A stretch of 38,512 nucleotides of DNA, from assembly GCA_030615855.1 (NCBI GenBank), contig JAUWYL010000009.1:1-38512 (forward strand), given 5' to 3'. The notes under the pieces were generated by a model that saw only the letters and a list, made by a program, of their open reading frames with translations, was not told the origin of the DNA and ran no database searches. The stretch is from a bacterium. GTDB lineage: Bacteria; UBP18; UBA7526. Of the stretch, positions 12,878 to 19,826 are shown piece by piece (the first letter of the stretch is position 1; each line of letters begins with the position of its first letter). A program made the translations under genes and the position numbers.

Positions 12878-14563
12878 TTAGGCTATTTTCTTTCCTGCCA
12901 AATTATTCTCTATGGCGCACTGGAGGATCGCCAGTTCATCCTTATCGAACCAGGTTGCCTGGCATCCATAACATCTGTCCACCTCAATGGGATAGGCCAG
13001 GCTGTAGAAAGTGCGGCGCATCTCTTTAAGGCAGCTGGGACACTTGAGTTGAGGGAATTCTTTGGGCAATTTTTTCCACCTCTTGATGGTATACCTCTTA
13101 ACGTTCTTACCCACCATTTCCTTAGCCAACTTCAGTATGCGCTCCAAGAATACTCTTTCCTCTCTCAGTAGGATGCGTGCTACCTTATCATTCTCTAAAA
13201 ATTTACCCCCGCAGAACATGCAGCGATATACCGTTGTGCCCTCATATTCTTTCTCCAGGAGACACTGATTACATCTGGGACATCTCAGATTTCCGGTCGT
13301 TCTTCCTCTGATGCGCTTGGCGAGCATCTTGGAAAGTGAGGGATTCCGGAAGGCACGCTCCGCCTTTCCCTTGCCCTTTTGATATACCCAGGAGCTAGGC
13401 CTAAACCAGGAGAGGGCAACAAGCTGGGGCAGGGTATAGGGACCTTTCCAATTTCCCTCTTTATCGTGTGCATACCAGCTGCCTCTCCCTAAAGAGACCT
13501 TTTTAGGGGCCCTCCTCGCCTTCTTTAATCTTTTCTTGGCCTTTCTCTTCTCCTCCAAAACCCGGATCTCGCTATGGGCCATAGCGAGCAGTATCTTTAT
13601 TCTCTTACTTATTGGAGGATGAGTAGAGAAGAGGTCAGCCCATAACCCTTCACTCTCATCGAGTTCGTTTGCTCTGGGGTTCATAATGAAGAGGGATTCC
13701 AGACCATCCCCAATATCGCCTGAGCCCCTCCAATTTCTGGAGATCTCATAAAGGGCTTCTGCTAAACCTAAGGGATTTCGGTTAATGCGGACTGCTGTGG
13801 CATCGGCGCGATACTCCCTCTGCCGGGAGATGGTGAGCTTTATGAAGCGAGCCATACCCTGGAGAATGGAGAGAGTGAGATAGGTTACCACCGCCAAGGC
13901 CATTACCTGGGCACCCGCCCTCCCATAGTAGCGCCTCCCCCTACTCTCAAGTTGATTCCTTATCTTAGAAAGAATCAGGGCATAGACTCCGAAGAGGGAA
14001 CAGGTAATGGTATTCTGAAGGCAGTCCCCCTGAGCGATATGGGCTGTCTCGTGGGCTACTACGGCCTCCAATTGCGATCGATTCAGCCTTGAGATGAGGC
14101 CCTCGGTTACCCCGATAATTGCATTATTATCAAAGTCCGCCAGGGCGAAGGCATTCATTGCCAAAGTGGGCAAGACCATCCCTCTTATCTGGTAGCGGCT
14201 ACCAATGGCAACCGAGGCCTCTTCTACAATATTCCTCAGCCTCTGATGGTAGCGGTCCTTTCTATCTAAGGGCTTTGCTCCCAGACGCAGGATGAACTTC
14301 CCCAATAATCTGTTTAAAGAGAAGCGCAGATGGATTATGGCCGCCACTAAAGAGACGAAAAAGATAAATAGAATCTGAATCGGGGTTAGAGCAAAGCGAA
14401 TACTAAGACCTGGGTGAGATAATGCTATTCTAAATGTTATAAAGAATTTCAGGATATAGCCGAGTATTAAAGCGGTCAAAAAATAAAAGACAATTAAAAT
14501 GGCGAAGAGAAGGAATATCCTATAGCTTTTCTCTTGTTCTATCTCTACATAAGTAAGTGCCAT
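12878..14563 (-). CDS. HtpX-like M48 membrane metalloprotease with C-terminal GYF-like and two zinc-ribbon domains
   Basis: NAFA, HETAH (HExxH), SRQREYRAD and STHP motifs; WY...GPYTLPQL; CPRC..CMFC and CPSC..CYGC. Confidence 0.85.
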   Translation of the reverse strand: MALTYVEIEQEKSYRIFLLFAILIVFYFLTALILGYILKFFITFRIALSHPGLSIRFALTPIQILFIFFVSLVAAIIHLRFSLNRLLGKFILRLGAKPLDRKDRYHQRLRNIVEEASVAIGSRYQIRGMVLPTLAMNAFALADFDNNAIIGVTEGLISRLNRSQLEAVVAHETAHIAQGDCLQNTITCSLFGVYALILSKIRNQLESRGRRYYGRAGAQVMALAVVTYLTLSILQGMARFIKLTISRQREYRADATAVRINRNPLGLAEALYEISRNWRGSGDIGDGLESLFIMNPRANELDESEGLWADLFSTHPPISKRIKILLAMAHSEIRVLEEKRKAKKRLKKARRAPKKVSLGRGSWYAHDKEGNWKGPYTLPQLVALSWFRPSSWVYQKGKGKAERAFRNPSLSKMLAKRIRGRTTGNLRCPRCNQCLLEKEYEGTTVYRCMFCGGKFLENDKVARILLREERVFLERILKLAKEMVGKNVKRYTIKRWKKLPKEFPQLKCPSCLKEMRRTFYSLAYPIEVDRCYGCQATWFDKDELAILQCAIENNLAGKKIA

Positions 14564-14658
14564 CTTAGAAAATTTTCTTATCTTTCATTTTTTATAAAGC
14601 ATCTGCGGTCATTGCTTAATATTTATGCTCTCTCGGATGCCAGCGAAGCGCATCCGGC

Positions 14659-14689
14659 ATCTGCGTTGATATCTGCGATAATCTGCGTC
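14659..14689. repeat. ATCTGCG x3 repeat arm immediately 3' of tRNA-Glu
   Basis: atctgcgttgat atctgcgata atctgcgtc. Confidence 0.75.
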
Positions 14690-14690
14690 T

Positions 14691-14768
14691 TGGTAGCGCG
14701 TAGGGGATTCGAACCCCTGATCTCCGCCTTGAGAGGGCGGCGTCTTAAACCAGCTGGACTAACGCGCC
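14691..14768 (-). tRNA. tRNA-Glu (CTC)
   Basis: GGCGCGT...CCGCC-CTCTCAA-GGCGG...GGTTCGAATCC...ACGCGCT-ACCA cloverleaf with encoded CCA. Confidence 0.96.
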
Positions 14769-14793
14769 ATCTAAAAATTAGTTATTACTAAGT

Positions 14794-15393
14794 TTACTCT
14801 TTTCTAACATCTTCTTGAATATCTTGAACAAATTTAGCTAATTGACTTTTTGCTTTTTTGCTTCTATTAGAAATAAAATAAACATTTGTTTTTAAATATT
14901 GTCCAATCTGATACATCTCAAAATCACAGGTAAGGATTTTAGCTTTAAGTTGTTTACCTTCTGTTAATATTATAAAATCATTTAACTCAACATGTTTAAC
15001 TTTTCTTTTTCTTGGATACTCATCATATTTTTCTATGACCGAATCAATAGTTAATGGTGTACCACCCCACCTTATTGGTGGCCCTATTTTTGTAAGAACG
15101 GGTTTAAATTTTTTCATAAGTGTCATTTTTGGGCTTAAACGATACCCTTTTCTAAAGTATTCAATAAATTCAAAAAATGCGCTATGACTTACATATAATC
15201 CTATTCTATCCTTATACTGCCGTAGAAAATTGATTGCGGCCCAAACATCTCGGTGGTGGTGGTGTGAAGAATCACACAGAGGTATCAATATTGAGGTATC
15301 TAACAATACTTTTATTTCTTTCTTTTTTGTTCTTATTTTTCTGGGCCGTGAGCCCTTTGTTAGTGGTACTTTTTTATTGCTTGTCTTTGCCAT
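14794..15393 (-). CDS. PIN-domain (VapC-like) ribonuclease
   Basis: VLLDTSILI, EFIE, LNDFIIL and ILTCD acidic motifs; AT-rich. ATG 15393 lies behind GAGGTG. Confidence 0.8.
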   Translation of the reverse strand: MAKTSNKKVPLTKGSRPRKIRTKKKEIKVLLDTSILIPLCDSSHHHHRDVWAAINFLRQYKDRIGLYVSHSAFFEFIEYFRKGYRLSPKMTLMKKFKPVLTKIGPPIRWGGTPLTIDSVIEKYDEYPRKRKVKHVELNDFIILTEGKQLKAKILTCDFEMYQIGQYLKTNVYFISNRSKKAKSQLAKFVQDIQEDVRKE

Positions 15394-15426
15394 CCCATAC
15401 ACCTCTTAATAATCTTGATAGTTTGT

Positions 15427-15462
15427 AGGGCGGCGTCTTAAACCAGCTGGACTAACGCGCCA
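15427..15462 (-). repeat. Exact copy of the 5' half of tRNA-Glu (att-like direct repeat of 14734-14769)
   Basis: 36-bp identity, ending at CCCT just before the anticodon. Confidence 0.92.
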
Positions 15463-15474
15463 AAATTTCTGAAA

Positions 15475-15572
15475 GAAATTTTGATCTCGAGTCCAGGAAG
15501 TGGCCAAGAGACCTTAAAATACAACATGAAATTTTGATCTCGAATCCCGAACTTCATCGGGATGAGAGACCT
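15475..15572. repeat. Two tandem units GAAATTTTGATCTCGA...AGAGACCT
   Basis: Copies at 15475-15514 and 15528-15572; the second encloses the hairpin atcccga-acttca-tcgggat. Confidence 0.7.
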
Positions 15573-15581
15573 ATAATTTAG

Positions 15582-15662
15582 GTATAACATTTTTCGCGCT
15601 TACAACGTTGTGCCCATAAGAGGAAAATATATCTAAGGCCTTTTGTTTAACCTATGTTATGC
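15582..15662 (-). other. Degenerate attC-like site
   Basis: R'' GCATAAC ... R' GTTATAC. The R'' flank matches the putative cassette start at 16452-16469 at 13/18; L boxes are poor. Confidence 0.5.
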
Positions 15663-15673
15663 AAGCTGCAAAA

Positions 15674-16435
15674 TTATGATATTTTTCCTCTTTTAGATAA
15701 ATCTTTAAACATTCTATTTACAGAATCTATACAAACGGCAAAAAGATCTTGTACTTCATCAATACCATATTTAGCTTCAGGATGTTGTGTTGGATTTCTT
15801 TCGTTATATCTGATGCTATCTAAACTGTCTAACAGAGCTTTAGGGGGGGCATCTCTTCTTTTTCTTAAATGTTCAATTATATTACCCCACATCAGTGAAG
15901 CAACTCTTCCATATTTAACAATACTACAATAATAAAATCTAAGAACTCCTTCTGTACCTCTTAAAATATGAAATGCTGCTGCTGTAGGAAGATCAAATGC
16001 TATGCATTTGCCAGCTTCGCTAAAATCGAATTTGGCCAATAGGGGCATTCTTGAGAATACATTTTGAGCAAATAATTCTTGGATGTTATCCACTAATTTT
16101 TTAGTGTCATACCTTTTAGGAGTTATTAAATATGTGTACCGCATCTTCAGTTCAGCATCTAATGTTCTATCTATTTCGTCAACTGCTTCTGTTATTTTGG
16201 TCGCAAGTTTTAAATTTACTTTTTCCTTATTATTCATCTTTCTCAACTCTTTTTCAAGTTTACGTAAACCATCAGCTGCCTTTTTAGTAACTTCTAAATC
16301 TAGAATATCAAAATAGTTAAGAGTGTTTTCCAATGTTGCAAGTACATCTTGAACTGTCCTATTCGCTGATGAATATCTTAATAGACGGTAGTCATATCCA
16401 AAGGCATAATAATTAAATATTTCAGTTTTTTTCAT
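15674..16435 (-). CDS. Hypothetical protein with a C-terminal HEPN-like (RxxxxH) domain
   Basis: EAGKCIAFDLPTAAAFHILRGTE and RNPTQH motifs; AT-rich. ATG 16435 lies behind AGGAG. Confidence 0.7.
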   Translation of the reverse strand: MKKTEIFNYYAFGYDYRLLRYSSANRTVQDVLATLENTLNYFDILDLEVTKKAADGLRKLEKELRKMNNKEKVNLKLATKITEAVDEIDRTLDAELKMRYTYLITPKRYDTKKLVDNIQELFAQNVFSRMPLLAKFDFSEAGKCIAFDLPTAAAFHILRGTEGVLRFYYCSIVKYGRVASLMWGNIIEHLRKRRDAPPKALLDSLDSIRYNERNPTQHPEAKYGIDEVQDLFAVCIDSVNRMFKDLSKRGKIS

Positions 16436-16500
16436 TCTATCTCCTTTTATAATTTGTATCTTGCCTAATTTGTTCGTCAATTTCTATTGAAACTGGCCTG

Positions 16501-16526
16501 CCAACCGAAGCCCTAGCGAAGGTTGG
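16501..16526. repeat. REP-like hairpin CCAACC-N14-GGTTGG adjoining the tRNA-Gln 3'-end copy
   Basis: ccaacc gaagccctagcgaa ggttgg. Confidence 0.6.
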
Positions 16527-16534
16527 CTGCGGGA
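16524..16534 (-). repeat. 11-bp copy of the tRNA-Gln 3' end (TCCCGCAGCCA)
   Basis: Identical to 16938-16948. Confidence 0.8.
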
Positions 16535-16536
16535 TA

Positions 16537-16595
16537 GGCGAACGGTTGAGTTTACCGGCGCGGGTCAGTGCGTATGGTGAAACGAAGTGCTAGGA
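16537..16595 (-). other. Integron attC site (59-base element)
   Basis: TCCTAGC-5nt-GTTTCACC-19nt-GGTAAAC-6nt-GTTCGCC. L''/L' pair with one extrahelical base, and the gene stop lies in R''. Confidence 0.85.
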
Positions 16596-16930
16596 AGCAA
16601 TTGTTTCTTCGGTTTCCCTTCGCTTTTTCATGCGCTTGTTCAACAAGTAACAAACTATTGCTGAAACCAAAAGAACGGGGAATCCTAAACCGGAGAGCAT
16701 CGGAATAATGAGCAAAGCCCACGCGTGGTACTCATCCATGGGGCCGCCCTGCAAGATTGCAGTGCCATAGTAAATAATGATGGGATTGACTATTGACAGA
16801 AGAAGGAGAAGGCCAACAAGTTTGGGGACACGCTTTGCCAAAAACCCTGCGACAACTCCTGCAACAACGTTTACCAGGAATAACGCTGACCATTCTAAAA
16901 TATTTGTTGGCATAAATTCCTGCTTCCTAA
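16543..16930 (-). mobile_element. Integron gene cassette carrying one small membrane-protein gene
   Basis: Starts G/TTAGGAAGCA, complementary at 10/11 to TGCTTCCTAGC at the R'' end; ends at the G/TT of attC R'. Confidence 0.82.
16590..16913 (-). CDS. Small multi-pass membrane protein (107 aa, hypothetical)
   Basis: MPTNILEWSALFLVNVVAG... with about 3-4 hydrophobic segments. The longer ORF-track start crosses the tRNA and is rejected. Confidence 0.75.
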   Translation of the reverse strand: MPTNILEWSALFLVNVVAGVVAGFLAKRVPKLVGLLLLLSIVNPIIIYYGTAILQGGPMDEYHAWALLIIPMLSGLGFPVLLVSAIVCYLLNKRMKKRRETEETIAS

Positions 16931-16937
16931 CCTGGAA

Positions 16938-17011
16938 TGGCTGCGGGACCAGGATTCGAACCTGGGCGACGAGATCCAGAATCTCGCATCCTACCGCTAG
17001 ATGATCCCGCA
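16938..17011 (-). tRNA. tRNA-Gln (CTG)
   Basis: TGCGGGA...CGAGA-TTCTGGA-TCTCG...CCAGGTTCGAATCCTGG-TCCCGCA-GCCA. Confidence 0.96.
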
Positions 17012-17037
17012 AATAAGCTTCACTTCGTTCAACAAAA

Positions 17038-17102
17038 CGCGGATACAAACAGATTGCTGCGGATTCAGACGAATATAATGTCTGTGTGCATCCGTTAATC
17101 TG
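17038..17102. repeat. Degenerate empty CGGAT/ATCCG inverted array in the tRNA leader
   Basis: cgcggat, acagat, gcggat followed by tctgtg, atccgt, atctgc. Confidence 0.55.
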
Positions 17103-17109
17103 CTTGTTT

Positions 17110-17138
17110 ATAATAACATATGTAGAGCAAAATAGCAA
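17110..17138 (-). promoter_or_regulatory. Putative sigma70 promoter for the tRNA operon
   Basis: TTGCTA-17nt-TATTAT with a TG extension. Confidence 0.6.
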
Positions 17139-17143
17139 AATTT

Positions 17144-18547
17144 TTAGAGCACTTTTTTCAGGCGTTCTATGGTTCTCTCTTTGCCCAGGAGCTCGATGGT
17201 CTCAAATAATGGGGGGCTTATTGTCTGTCCAGTGAGGGCTACTCGGATGGCCTGGGCTCCTATCTTAGGCTTTATCTGGAATACTTCTAATTCTTTCCTA
17301 ATTATTTCTTCTATCCCCCTCTCCTTAAATTGTTTTAACTCAGATAGTTTCTCTTTTACTTCTTTTAAGAAGGGCTTGATTTCTTTCTTTAAGAACTTCT
17401 CTTTTACTTTCTTATCAAAGGTTATTTCTTCAGTGAAGAAGAATCCAGCATAATCTATGATCTGGCCGATATACTTCAGACGCTCTCCCACTGCCCTTAC
17501 AATCCTTTCTATCCATCTCCTCCTTTCTGGACTAATCTCCTTTGGCAGAAGTTTCTTCTTCTTTAGATAATCGGTGACCAAATCTACAATTTTTTCTGGA
17601 GCGGTCTCTTTAAGATAGTGGCCGTTCATCCACTCTAACTTTTTGGGATCGAAGACCGCTGGGTTTCTGCTCACATGCTCTAAGGAGAACCTTTCGATTA
17701 GCTCTTCTTGAGTAAAGAGCTGCTTTGACTCATGCGTCCCCCAGCCAAGAAGAGCAAGGTAGTTTATTAGGGCCTGGGGTAGATACCCCATCTCTCTATA
17801 CTGACTGACCGCCACCGCCCCATGACGCTTGGATAGGGGTGTATGGTCGCTTCCCAGGATCATGGGGAGGTGAGCAAACTTAGGTAGATCAAAGCCTAAG
17901 GCCTGATAGACCAGTATCTGTCTGGGGGTATTGGGAAGATGGTCCTCTCCCCTTATTACATGGCTGACCTTCATCAAAACGTCATCGATGATGCAGGCAA
18001 AGTTATAGGTAGGAACATCATCCGATTTGAGCAAGACGAAATCATCCAGGAGTTTGTTCTCAAACTCAATCTTTCCTCTAACTACATCATTCAGGATCGT
18101 CTTTCCCGTTGAGGGCGATCTAAGCCTCAAAGCAGGCTTCCTTCCCTGTCTGGTATATTCCCTCTTTTGTTCCTCAGTTAGATTGCGGCACCTCCCGTCA
18201 TACCTATAGGCTCCCTTTCTTCTCCTATCTTTGAGCTCTTCTGGAGTGCAGTAACAGAGATAGGCCTTTCCTTCTTCTAAGAGTTTATCACCATATTTCT
18301 TATAGATATCCAATCGTTCCATCTGGAAGTATGGCCCCTCATCCCACTCTAAATCCAGCCACTTCATACTCTCTAGGATATCAGCAATCGACTCCTTTGT
18401 TGACCTCTTTTTATCCGTATCCTCAATACGCAGGATGAACTTGCCCTTATGATGCCGGGCAAAGAGCCAGTTAAAGAGAGCGGTCCTCACTCCCCCGATA
18501 TGGAGACGTCCTGTTGGAGATGGCGCGAATCTTACCCTAACTTCCAT
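17144..18547 (-). CDS. gltX: Glutamate--tRNA ligase
   Basis: RFAPSPTG, HIGG and LSKR motifs. Confidence 0.97.
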   Translation of the reverse strand: MEVRVRFAPSPTGRLHIGGVRTALFNWLFARHHKGKFILRIEDTDKKRSTKESIADILESMKWLDLEWDEGPYFQMERLDIYKKYGDKLLEEGKAYLCYCTPEELKDRRRKGAYRYDGRCRNLTEEQKREYTRQGRKPALRLRSPSTGKTILNDVVRGKIEFENKLLDDFVLLKSDDVPTYNFACIIDDVLMKVSHVIRGEDHLPNTPRQILVYQALGFDLPKFAHLPMILGSDHTPLSKRHGAVAVSQYREMGYLPQALINYLALLGWGTHESKQLFTQEELIERFSLEHVSRNPAVFDPKKLEWMNGHYLKETAPEKIVDLVTDYLKKKKLLPKEISPERRRWIERIVRAVGERLKYIGQIIDYAGFFFTEEITFDKKVKEKFLKKEIKPFLKEVKEKLSELKQFKERGIEEIIRKELEVFQIKPKIGAQAIRVALTGQTISPPLFETIELLGKERTIERLKKVL

Positions 18548-18557
18548 CCTTCACTCC

Positions 18558-19826
18558 TCAGGTCCTATAATGAGCATTGATCTTCACATAATCCGAGGTT
18601 AGATCACAGGTCCAAATCTTAGTATTTTCTTTTCCCAGATTTAAATCCACTATTATCTTAATCTCTTTCCCCTTTAGAATCTTCTTTGCCTCCCTCCGGG
18701 TCAGAGACCCTCTTGGGTCGGAGACTTCTTCACTGAATTTAGCGCTACAACCTTTGGAGGCTAACTTTAAATCCCCAAGATAGATATCTACTTTGTTCTC
18801 TTCTATTTTGACTCCGCTATTCCCGATGGCAGCCATTATTCTTCCCCAGTTGGCATCCTCTCCAAAGATGGCGGTCTTAACCAAAAGGGAATTAGCGATA
18901 GAGAAGGCAATCCTCTTTGCATCTTCCAATTTTAGGGCATTTTTGACTTCAATCTCGATGAACTTTGTCGCTCCCTCTCCATCTTTAACAATCATCTTGG
19001 CCAATTTTAGAGTCACTTCATCCAACCCAGAGGAGAACTTCTTAAAGTCTTCATTTTCTTTATCGACCTCTTCATTCTCCGCCAAACCATTGGCCAAAAT
19101 GACAACCATATCGTTGGTGCTCTCTTCTCCATCAACTGTAATCATATTGAATGACTTAGCGATAGAAGACTTTAGTGCCTTTTTCAATAATTCGCCACCA
19201 ATCGCCACATCCGTAGTAATAAAAGAGAGCATGGTGGCAAGGTGAGGGAAGATCATCCCTGCCCCCTTTGCCATTCCTCCAATAACAGACCTCTTACCAC
19301 CTATATTCAACTCTACCGCTACCTCTTTAGGGAAAGTATCAGTGGTCATTATTGCGCTTGCTGCATCACCACCCCCCTCTCCACTCAACTTACCTTTTGC
19401 CTCCTTTATTCCTTCGATAATCTTATCCATAGGCAGGAAAGTGCCGATGGTCCCTGTAGAAGTAACTAAAACATCTTCTTTCTCTATGCCCAGTATTTGT
19501 GCCGTCGCTTGAGTCATCTCTTCTGCATCCTCTAATCCTTTCTTTCCTGTTGCAGCATTGGCAATACCTGAGTTTATGACAATTGCCTGGGCCTTTCCAT
19601 CCTTAATATGTTCGGCACTTACTTTTAGGGGGGCAGCCTTAACCTGGTTAGTGGTGAATAATGCTGTAGCCCTTGCCATAACCTCGGAGTAGATTAAGGC
19701 TAAGTCTTTTGCCGCCTCGGCGGCACCCCGCTTCAGCGGTGGCTTTCCCCCTTTCTTAATCCCACAAGAAATCCCCGCAGCCTTAAAACCGCGGGGAGCA
19801 GTAATCCCACCCTCGATTTCTTTCAT
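18558..19826 (-). CDS. argJ: Bifunctional ornithine acetyltransferase/N-acetylglutamate synthase, with two 11-aa insertions
   Basis: IMTTDT, KGAGMI...ATML, DGEGATK and DANWGR motifs. Confidence 0.95.
   Translation of the reverse strand: MKEIEGGITAPRGFKAAGISCGIKKGGKPPLKRGAAEAAKDLALIYSEVMARATALFTTNQVKAAPLKVSAEHIKDGKAQAIVINSGIANAATGKKGLEDAEEMTQATAQILGIEKEDVLVTSTGTIGTFLPMDKIIEGIKEAKGKLSGEGGGDAASAIMTTDTFPKEVAVELNIGGKRSVIGGMAKGAGMIFPHLATMLSFITTDVAIGGELLKKALKSSIAKSFNMITVDGEESTNDMVVILANGLAENEEVDKENEDFKKFSSGLDEVTLKLAKMIVKDGEGATKFIEIEVKNALKLEDAKRIAFSIANSLLVKTAIFGEDANWGRIMAAIGNSGVKIEENKVDIYLGDLKLASKGCSAKFSEEVSDPRGSLTRREAKKILKGKEIKIIVDLNLGKENTKIWTCDLTSDYVKINAHYRT
18693..18725. repeat. 33-bp palindromic element inside argJ
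   Basis: cctccgggtcagagaccctcttgggtcggagac; encodes VSDPRGSLTRR. Confidence 0.85.
19710..19742. repeat. 33-bp double-hairpin element inside argJ
   Basis: tgccgcc-tc-ggcggca followed by ccccgc-ttca-gcggtgg; encodes PPLKRGAAEAA. Confidence 0.85.

Follow-up and report, generated by a model that had tools for sequence, protein, structure and literature searches.

The attC sites of integron cassettes consist of an R'' box with the consensus RYYYAAC, complementary to a core R' box with the consensus GTTRRRY, and have a total length of roughly 57-141 nt. Isolated cassettes have been studied by Loot et al., whose journal version reportedly appeared in Nature Microbiology in 2024. As far as the accessible text of their preprint goes (Loot et al., 2023; 10.1101/2022.09.11.507474), 3400 isolated cassettes, named SALINs, are present in RefSeq genomes, and some phyla hold only SALINs. 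The same text reports that IntI1, IntI2 and IntI3 place attC cassettes at loci throughout the E. coli genome that fit the consensus GWT, termed attG, and that hotspots among these have an added CRGM at positions +6 to +9 that is not required of all sites.

Here we analyse a locus in the window, that is, the whole stretch of 38,512 nt of contig JAUWYL010000009.1 (assembly GCA_030615855.1, lineage UBP18; UBA7526). Our reading, which we hold to be likely, is that a lone integron-type cassette was inserted by recombination between its attC site and a genomic GTT, that is, in attG-type manner, at the G/TT of a decayed duplicate of the 3' end of tRNA-Gln. The element, made of one ORF and one attC with no integrase nearby, is a SALIN and belongs to an already described class. 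Compared with SALINs and attG sites as the accessible part of the preprint presents them, it has the same composition, the same lack of IntI and attI in the vicinity, a GWT target cut between G and TT (its GTT fits the consensus at positions -1 to +2), an intergenic location close to a promoter and a host phylum without integrons. It differs in that the GTT lies in the remnant of a tRNA T-arm, that CRGM is absent at +6 to +9, where the window reads CTAT (1/4 match), that the R'' triplet has decayed, and that the host has a 1.4-Mb genome and belongs to a candidate phylum of six species. The features of the locus are collected in Table 1.

Table 1. Coordinates of the cassette, its attC-like site, the target and the surrounding genes (positions in the window unless another locus is named).
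Feature	Position	Strand	Basis or remark
gltX	18547-17144	minus	followed downstream by tRNA-Gln(CTG)
Sigma-70-like promoter match upstream of tRNA-Gln	17110-17138	minus	9/12 consensus positions plus TG extension
tRNA-Gln (anticodon CTG), intact, CCA encoded	16938-17011	minus	ARAGORN; Rfam RF00005, 56.7 bits
Target, left half TTCCAGG (5' strand of the T-stem copy plus G of G/TT)	16931-16937	minus	direct reading
Cassette, 388 bp, from TT... to ...G	16543-16930	minus	GTT at both borders
ORF P0001, 107 aa	16590-16913	minus	translation; sole ORF of the insert
attC-like site, 59 nt, imperfect palindrome	16537-16595	minus	reading, circular-junction fold, null control
R'' TCCTAGC	16595-16589	minus	
Spacer after R'', 5 nt	16588-16584	minus	
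L'' with one extra base	16583-16576	minus	
Loop, 19 nt	16575-16557	minus	
L'	16556-16550	minus	
Spacer before R', 6 nt	16549-16544	minus	
Hybrid R' GTTCGCC	16543-16537	minus	
Target, right half (TTCG, CCTA, exact 11-nt copy of the tRNA acceptor end with CCA)	16524-16542	minus	
Native hairpin GCCAACC ... GGTTGGC	16500-16527	minus	directly 3' of tRNA-Gln in relatives
RHS-repeat protein and P0010 region	L150 830-5288		

Read directly on the minus strand, the attC-like site has the layout 7-5-8-19-7-6-7, in which L'' and L' form a stem of 7 bp with only one extrahelical base. Furthermore, 10 of the 11 bases that open the cassette (16931-16921) are complementary to 16599-16589. Both features had been proposed in a first-pass annotation of this DNA, and all of its elements were found in their places. 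Its description of the site as a textbook attC holds for the layout and is overstated in three respects: the R'' triplet is AGC, as against the conserved AAC; the present R', GTTCGCC, does not pair with R''; and the integrated site folds no better than shuffled sequences (z -0.5 to -1.7). In this hybrid R' the TTCGCC of the target replaces the TTAGGA of the cassette itself, and the reconstituted R' would read GTTAGGA, with an A and no pyrimidine at the seventh base. Taken as a unit, the insert is one ORF and an attC-like site bounded by G/TT, the site being within the usual range of attC lengths.

We also computed the fold of the circular junction, which reaches -14.0 kcal/mol for the bottom strand (z -3.3) and -11.4 kcal/mol for the top strand (z -2.7). 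The structure has two stems, an outer one of 9-11 bp and an inner one from which a single G bulges, as well as internal loops and a terminal loop. As a null set we drew 3000 random GTT..GTT pairs, 300-500 nt apart, from the same genome (G000). None of them reached a complementarity of 10/11, 17 reached 9/11, and 46 attained -14.0 kcal/mol. By our estimate, about 6% of GTTs would have an inner stem of this kind by chance; since it is that common, the case rests on the outer complementarity together with the independently established borders and the homologues of the cassette gene. Searches for related sites gave no attC match in Rfam within 14000-19000, and blastn of the attC region against plasmids found no related attC, only two short matches (E 0.2 and 0.8).

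The G/TT insertion point lies 9 nt downstream of the intact tRNA-Gln. When the flanks are joined without the insert, they agree with the last 28 nt of tRNA-Gln at 23 of 24 aligned positions, with one gap of 3 nt and one of 1 nt, which bears out the earlier suggestion that excision would leave a degenerate copy of the tRNA 3' end. In the right half of the target, TCCCGCAGCCA is an exact 11-nt copy of the end of tRNA-Gln (16534-16524), and the insert is hence bracketed by 11 identical nucleotides of the acceptor end in direct orientation (16948-16938 and 16534-16524). The left half, TTCCAGG, is homologous to the CCA-TCCCAGG of the corresponding spacer in G004, a genome of another genus. The sequence of the native hairpin is found directly after the CCA end of the real tRNA-Gln in G005 and G003, and the copy at 16534-16524 therefore carries the original downstream flank. 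Judged from these alignments, the target is a decayed duplicate of the T-arm and acceptor end of tRNA-Gln, and its GTT is that of the T-loop.

The phylum is represented in our genome set by six species (G000-G005), G000 being the genome of the window (93.6% complete). The distance between tRNA-Gln and tRNA-Glu is 2169 nt in the window versus 1-161 nt in all five other genomes of the family. None of these five carries the cassette, as expected if relatives retain the empty allele that the first-pass annotation had suggested looking for. Four of them (G001, G002, G003 and G005) have no scar either, and G004 has the scar without the cassette. There, tRNA-Gln is followed by two tandem units, beginning CCA-TCCCAGGTTCGCCTG and CCA-TATAGGTTCGCCTG, and the joined flanks of the window match them straight across the junction at 20 of 23 positions (unit 2) and 17 of 23 (unit 1). 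Because the units of G004 are uninterrupted across the GTT, the scar exists without an insert, and the insert of the window is located exactly at the GTT of the scar, between G and TT as had been proposed from the window alone; the match with the G004 motif confirms the junction independently. An empty target has thus been kept in a sister genus, which resolves the junction to single-base precision and makes the locus a clean instance in nature of integron cassettes entering by genome insertion. Within the family, two genomes have the motif GTTCGCCTRYCCCG, G000 with one copy and G004 with two, and it is absent from the other four. The scars of G000 and G004 both lack the same two segments of the tRNA end and are therefore homologous or derived from related elements, their distribution across the family being patchy.

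Other matches to the scar were discarded. A second one in G000, on contig C18 (14 nt to the G004 motif), is the end of a coding frame and was judged a coincidence, and a scan of genome contigs with a 16-mer of the scar motif was too unspecific, with 120+ unrelated matches across phyla. A 43-mer pattern of tRNA-Gln had no match in metagenome contigs and yielded no further relatives. The G004 locus itself (L009 100-420, in tRNA orientation) has many partial tRNA copies around tRNA-Gln. An 18-nt fragment of the tRNA 5' end is duplicated upstream of the intact gene, each of the two tandem T-arm/acceptor units downstream has a hairpin with the stem YCCCGT...ACGGGR, and the last unit, whose 3' end resembles that of tRNA-Gln in G005, abuts tRNA-Glu.

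The gene carried by the insert provides a further line of evidence. P0001 matches no Pfam or PADLOC model, and used as a query it found relatives in none of 60 other genomes searched. A phmmer search of 1.84 billion representatives returned 10 relatives of 95-178 aa (E 1e-16 to 4e-4), all unnamed and rare, with the invariant residues G23, Y48, W65 and P71; in a protein atlas the best score was 0.88, to hypothetical proteins. A scan with P0008 gave two matches that were rejected as family members, both being 21-residue matches to the signal peptide of unrelated proteins of ~410 aa. Among the four family loci that we read, three (L149, L151 and L152) have the relative in a cassette, between core site and attC site, as an integron-type cassette would be expected to, which upholds the initial identification of the insert as one; the fourth, L150, does not. 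In L149, from a Spartobacteria MAG, P0003 (42% identity) starts 2 nt after GTTAGAT and its stop lies within ATCTAAC, which is itself complementary to the start at 9 of 9 positions. The attC that follows has an L'' with one extra base that pairs with L', and ends in GTTAGGC. The cassette stands alone here, with a nuoC-like gene on one side and a phosphorylase gene on the other. L151 and L152, two metagenome contigs, carry P0006 and a 76% relative in cassette arrays with uniform attC sites of 82-144 nt. An ORF start just past the core site is common to the family cassettes and the window, and a stop in R'' is shared with the window in one case. Compared with these sedentary chromosomal integron arrays, the insert of the window has the same gene family, an ORF that starts a few bases past the GTT core and one extra L'' base; on the other hand, the attC sites of the arrays are longer, uniform and in series, whereas that of the window is 59 nt long, unrelated in sequence and alone.

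As for the mechanism, IntI would have acted in trans, maybe brought by a mobile element that was present only transiently; alternatively, the insertion may have occurred in an ancestor or a donor. The recombining partners would have been the folded bottom strand of the attC and the GTT of the scar in double-stranded form. With the integron-integrase model TIGR02249 (cut-off 265 bits), none of the six phylum genomes has an integron integrase above the cut-off; the best score in the phylum is 89.7 bits, and the best matches are Xer-like proteins of 295-353 aa. As no IntI was found in these six genomes, the catalyst is one that we infer. Neither intI nor attI lies beside the cassette, as they would in a complete integron. 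Cassettes hence reach a candidate phylum of six species with genomes of 1.1-1.4 Mb in which no integron integrase was found. One Xer-like tyrosine recombinase was found in G000 (295 aa, on C30) and two in each of G001-G004, and a second one in G000 may be merely unassembled given the completeness of the genome.

Once inserted, the cassette may have become hard to excise, as the hybrid R' and the change in R'' would leave no R-box stem. The first-pass annotation had attributed such a lock-in to the AAC to AGC change of R'', which is plausible; a mismatched hybrid R', as supplied by the target, would be enough to weaken the R box, so that lock-in can be explained without the change in R''. A deviant R'' triplet is also present in two of the five natural array attC sites that were read. 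The stop codon of P0001 is a TAG inside R'', and because the AAC to AGC change turns TAA into TAG, the stop codon survives it.

The ORF has no promoter of its own and would be transcribed by read-through from the gltX/tRNA-Gln promoter. A scan found 8 promoter-like sites of this kind versus 8.6 expected from shuffles, and the site upstream of tRNA-Gln is a match to the consensus only. No terminator-like site was found on the minus strand from tRNA-Gln to the ORF, and P0001 has its own AGGA-type ribosome-binding site. Given the promoter-like site upstream and the lack of terminator-like sites, read-through expression of P0001 is predicted and likely. A place 9 nt behind a tRNA would give the promoterless gene a strong promoter, and this may explain why the cassette was retained. 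Hydropathy gives P0001 about three hydrophobic segments, pointing to a small 3-TM protein. In the remaining family locus, L150 (Verrucomicrobiota MAG), the gene of an RHS-repeat protein of 1381 aa is followed after about 25 nt by P0010 (33% identity), which has no attC. For the C-terminal domain of the RHS protein, the searches gave no PDB relative and just one PLA2-like match below threshold (PF08398, E 0.22). A gene directly behind an RHS protein is in the usual position of an immunity gene, a lead that hints by analogy that P0001 is possibly an orphan immunity protein.

The spacer between the two tRNAs holds three separate single-gene insertions within 2.2 kb. One of the other two is a low-GC insert of 693 bp between exact direct repeats of 36 nt (14734-14769 and 15427-15462), which correspond to the 5' half of tRNA-Glu and end just before the anticodon. 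Its one ORF, of 202 aa, weakly matches a PIN domain (E 6e-4, below cut-off), and the insert contains no integrase. The third insertion, at about 15580-16456, has an ORF of 268 aa with a weak match to DUF4303 (E 0.0097, below cut-off) and weak PADLOC matches to CARF, DndD and Csx1 models (E 6e-4 to 9e-3). Native spacer sequence is repeated imperfectly, in direct orientation, on either side of this insertion (ATAC..AAATTATA). We looked for attC features at the 268-aa and PIN-like gene insertions and found none.

These neighbours bear on a second reading of the locus, in which the T-arm copy is a preferred landing pad and tRNA remnants recruit hairpin cassettes through an integrase or the Xer recombinase of the host. 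The same scar motif at the same place in two genera, the clustering of three insertions in 2.2 kb, and a phylum that has Xer-like recombinases and no IntI that we could find would all be consistent with it. It nevertheless concerns one case, the scars of G004 carry no cassette, and in the accessible text of the preprint IntI requires only GWT (10.1101/2022.09.11.507474); moreover, L149 holds a lone cassette of this gene family with no tRNA inside 10 kb. We consider this reading improbable. The general link from tRNA scars to cassette capture, drawn in the first-pass annotation, is not supported by this single case, and the cassette of L149 does not share the tRNA context. The accompanying idea that the T-loop GTT served as a substitute for attI stands as to the identity of the T-arm, and nothing here shows a role for it beyond the supply of a GTT, GWT being all that the published integrases need as far as that text goes. 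A literature search, judged from the one paper in its listing, on peptide deformylases, gave no sign of tRNA T-arms as targets of cassettes, and the T-arm angle is an anecdote so far. In its broadest form, that decayed T-arm copies are recurrent landing pads for single-stranded hairpin cassettes, possibly through host Xer and expressed from the tRNA promoter, the proposal appears very unlikely to us; if true, it would amount to an integron-free system of cassette capture in a reduced-genome phylum that lacks integrases.

The locus could also be the remnant of a tRNA-targeting integrative element, a unit of 414 bp that a tyrosine integrase recombined with the 3' end of tRNA-Gln, producing the 11-nt direct repeats, with the attC-like hairpin as part of its attachment region or a terminator. 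Islands with tyrosine integrases likewise have a duplicated tRNA 3' end whose displaced copy adjoins the native flank, as do the exact 11-nt repeats here, and the PIN-like gene lies between exact tRNA-Glu repeats close by. Such elements differ from the insert of the window, which has one promoterless ORF with an attC-like end and is inserted at a GTT inside the duplicate, not at its edge. No integrase gene was found in or near the unit, the flanks in G004 are contiguous across the GTT in a scar that has no insert, and the complementarity of the start to R'' and the cassette-borne homologues would be left unexplained. This makes an integrative element quite unlikely. Finally, a chance resemblance, in which an ordinary lineage-specific small ORF happens to precede an irregular hairpin, would fit the non-significant fold of the integrated site, the non-canonical R'' triplet and the lack of P0001 in 60 other genomes, but is already disfavoured and highly improbable given that none of 3000 random pairs equals the 10/11 complementarity, that G004 confirms the borders and that homologues are found in cassette arrays.

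Returning to the inserted cassette, it can be followed in other samples. Run X1 is possibly the source sample of the genome and is not independent. In run X4 a contig has tRNA-Glu and tRNA-Gln joined with one base between them, as in G001. No contig with the scar and without the cassette was seen in the community runs, which does not speak against the presence of such an allele because contigs drop rare variants. In run X8, from another study, a 787-nt contig carries 16539-16957 with 9 differences in 419 nt, which shows that the same cassette persists in a second sample. This contig skips from 15537 to 16507, the site of the 268-aa gene, and hence has the cassette and lacks the neighbouring insertion. 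Upstream of the tRNA, the interval between gltX and tRNA-Gln (17013-17106) is a dispersed repeat of about 80-95 nt, with copies at 73-82% identity on contigs C30, C44 and C6 of the same genome and in G002, G004 and G005; the copies elsewhere do not adjoin tRNAs.
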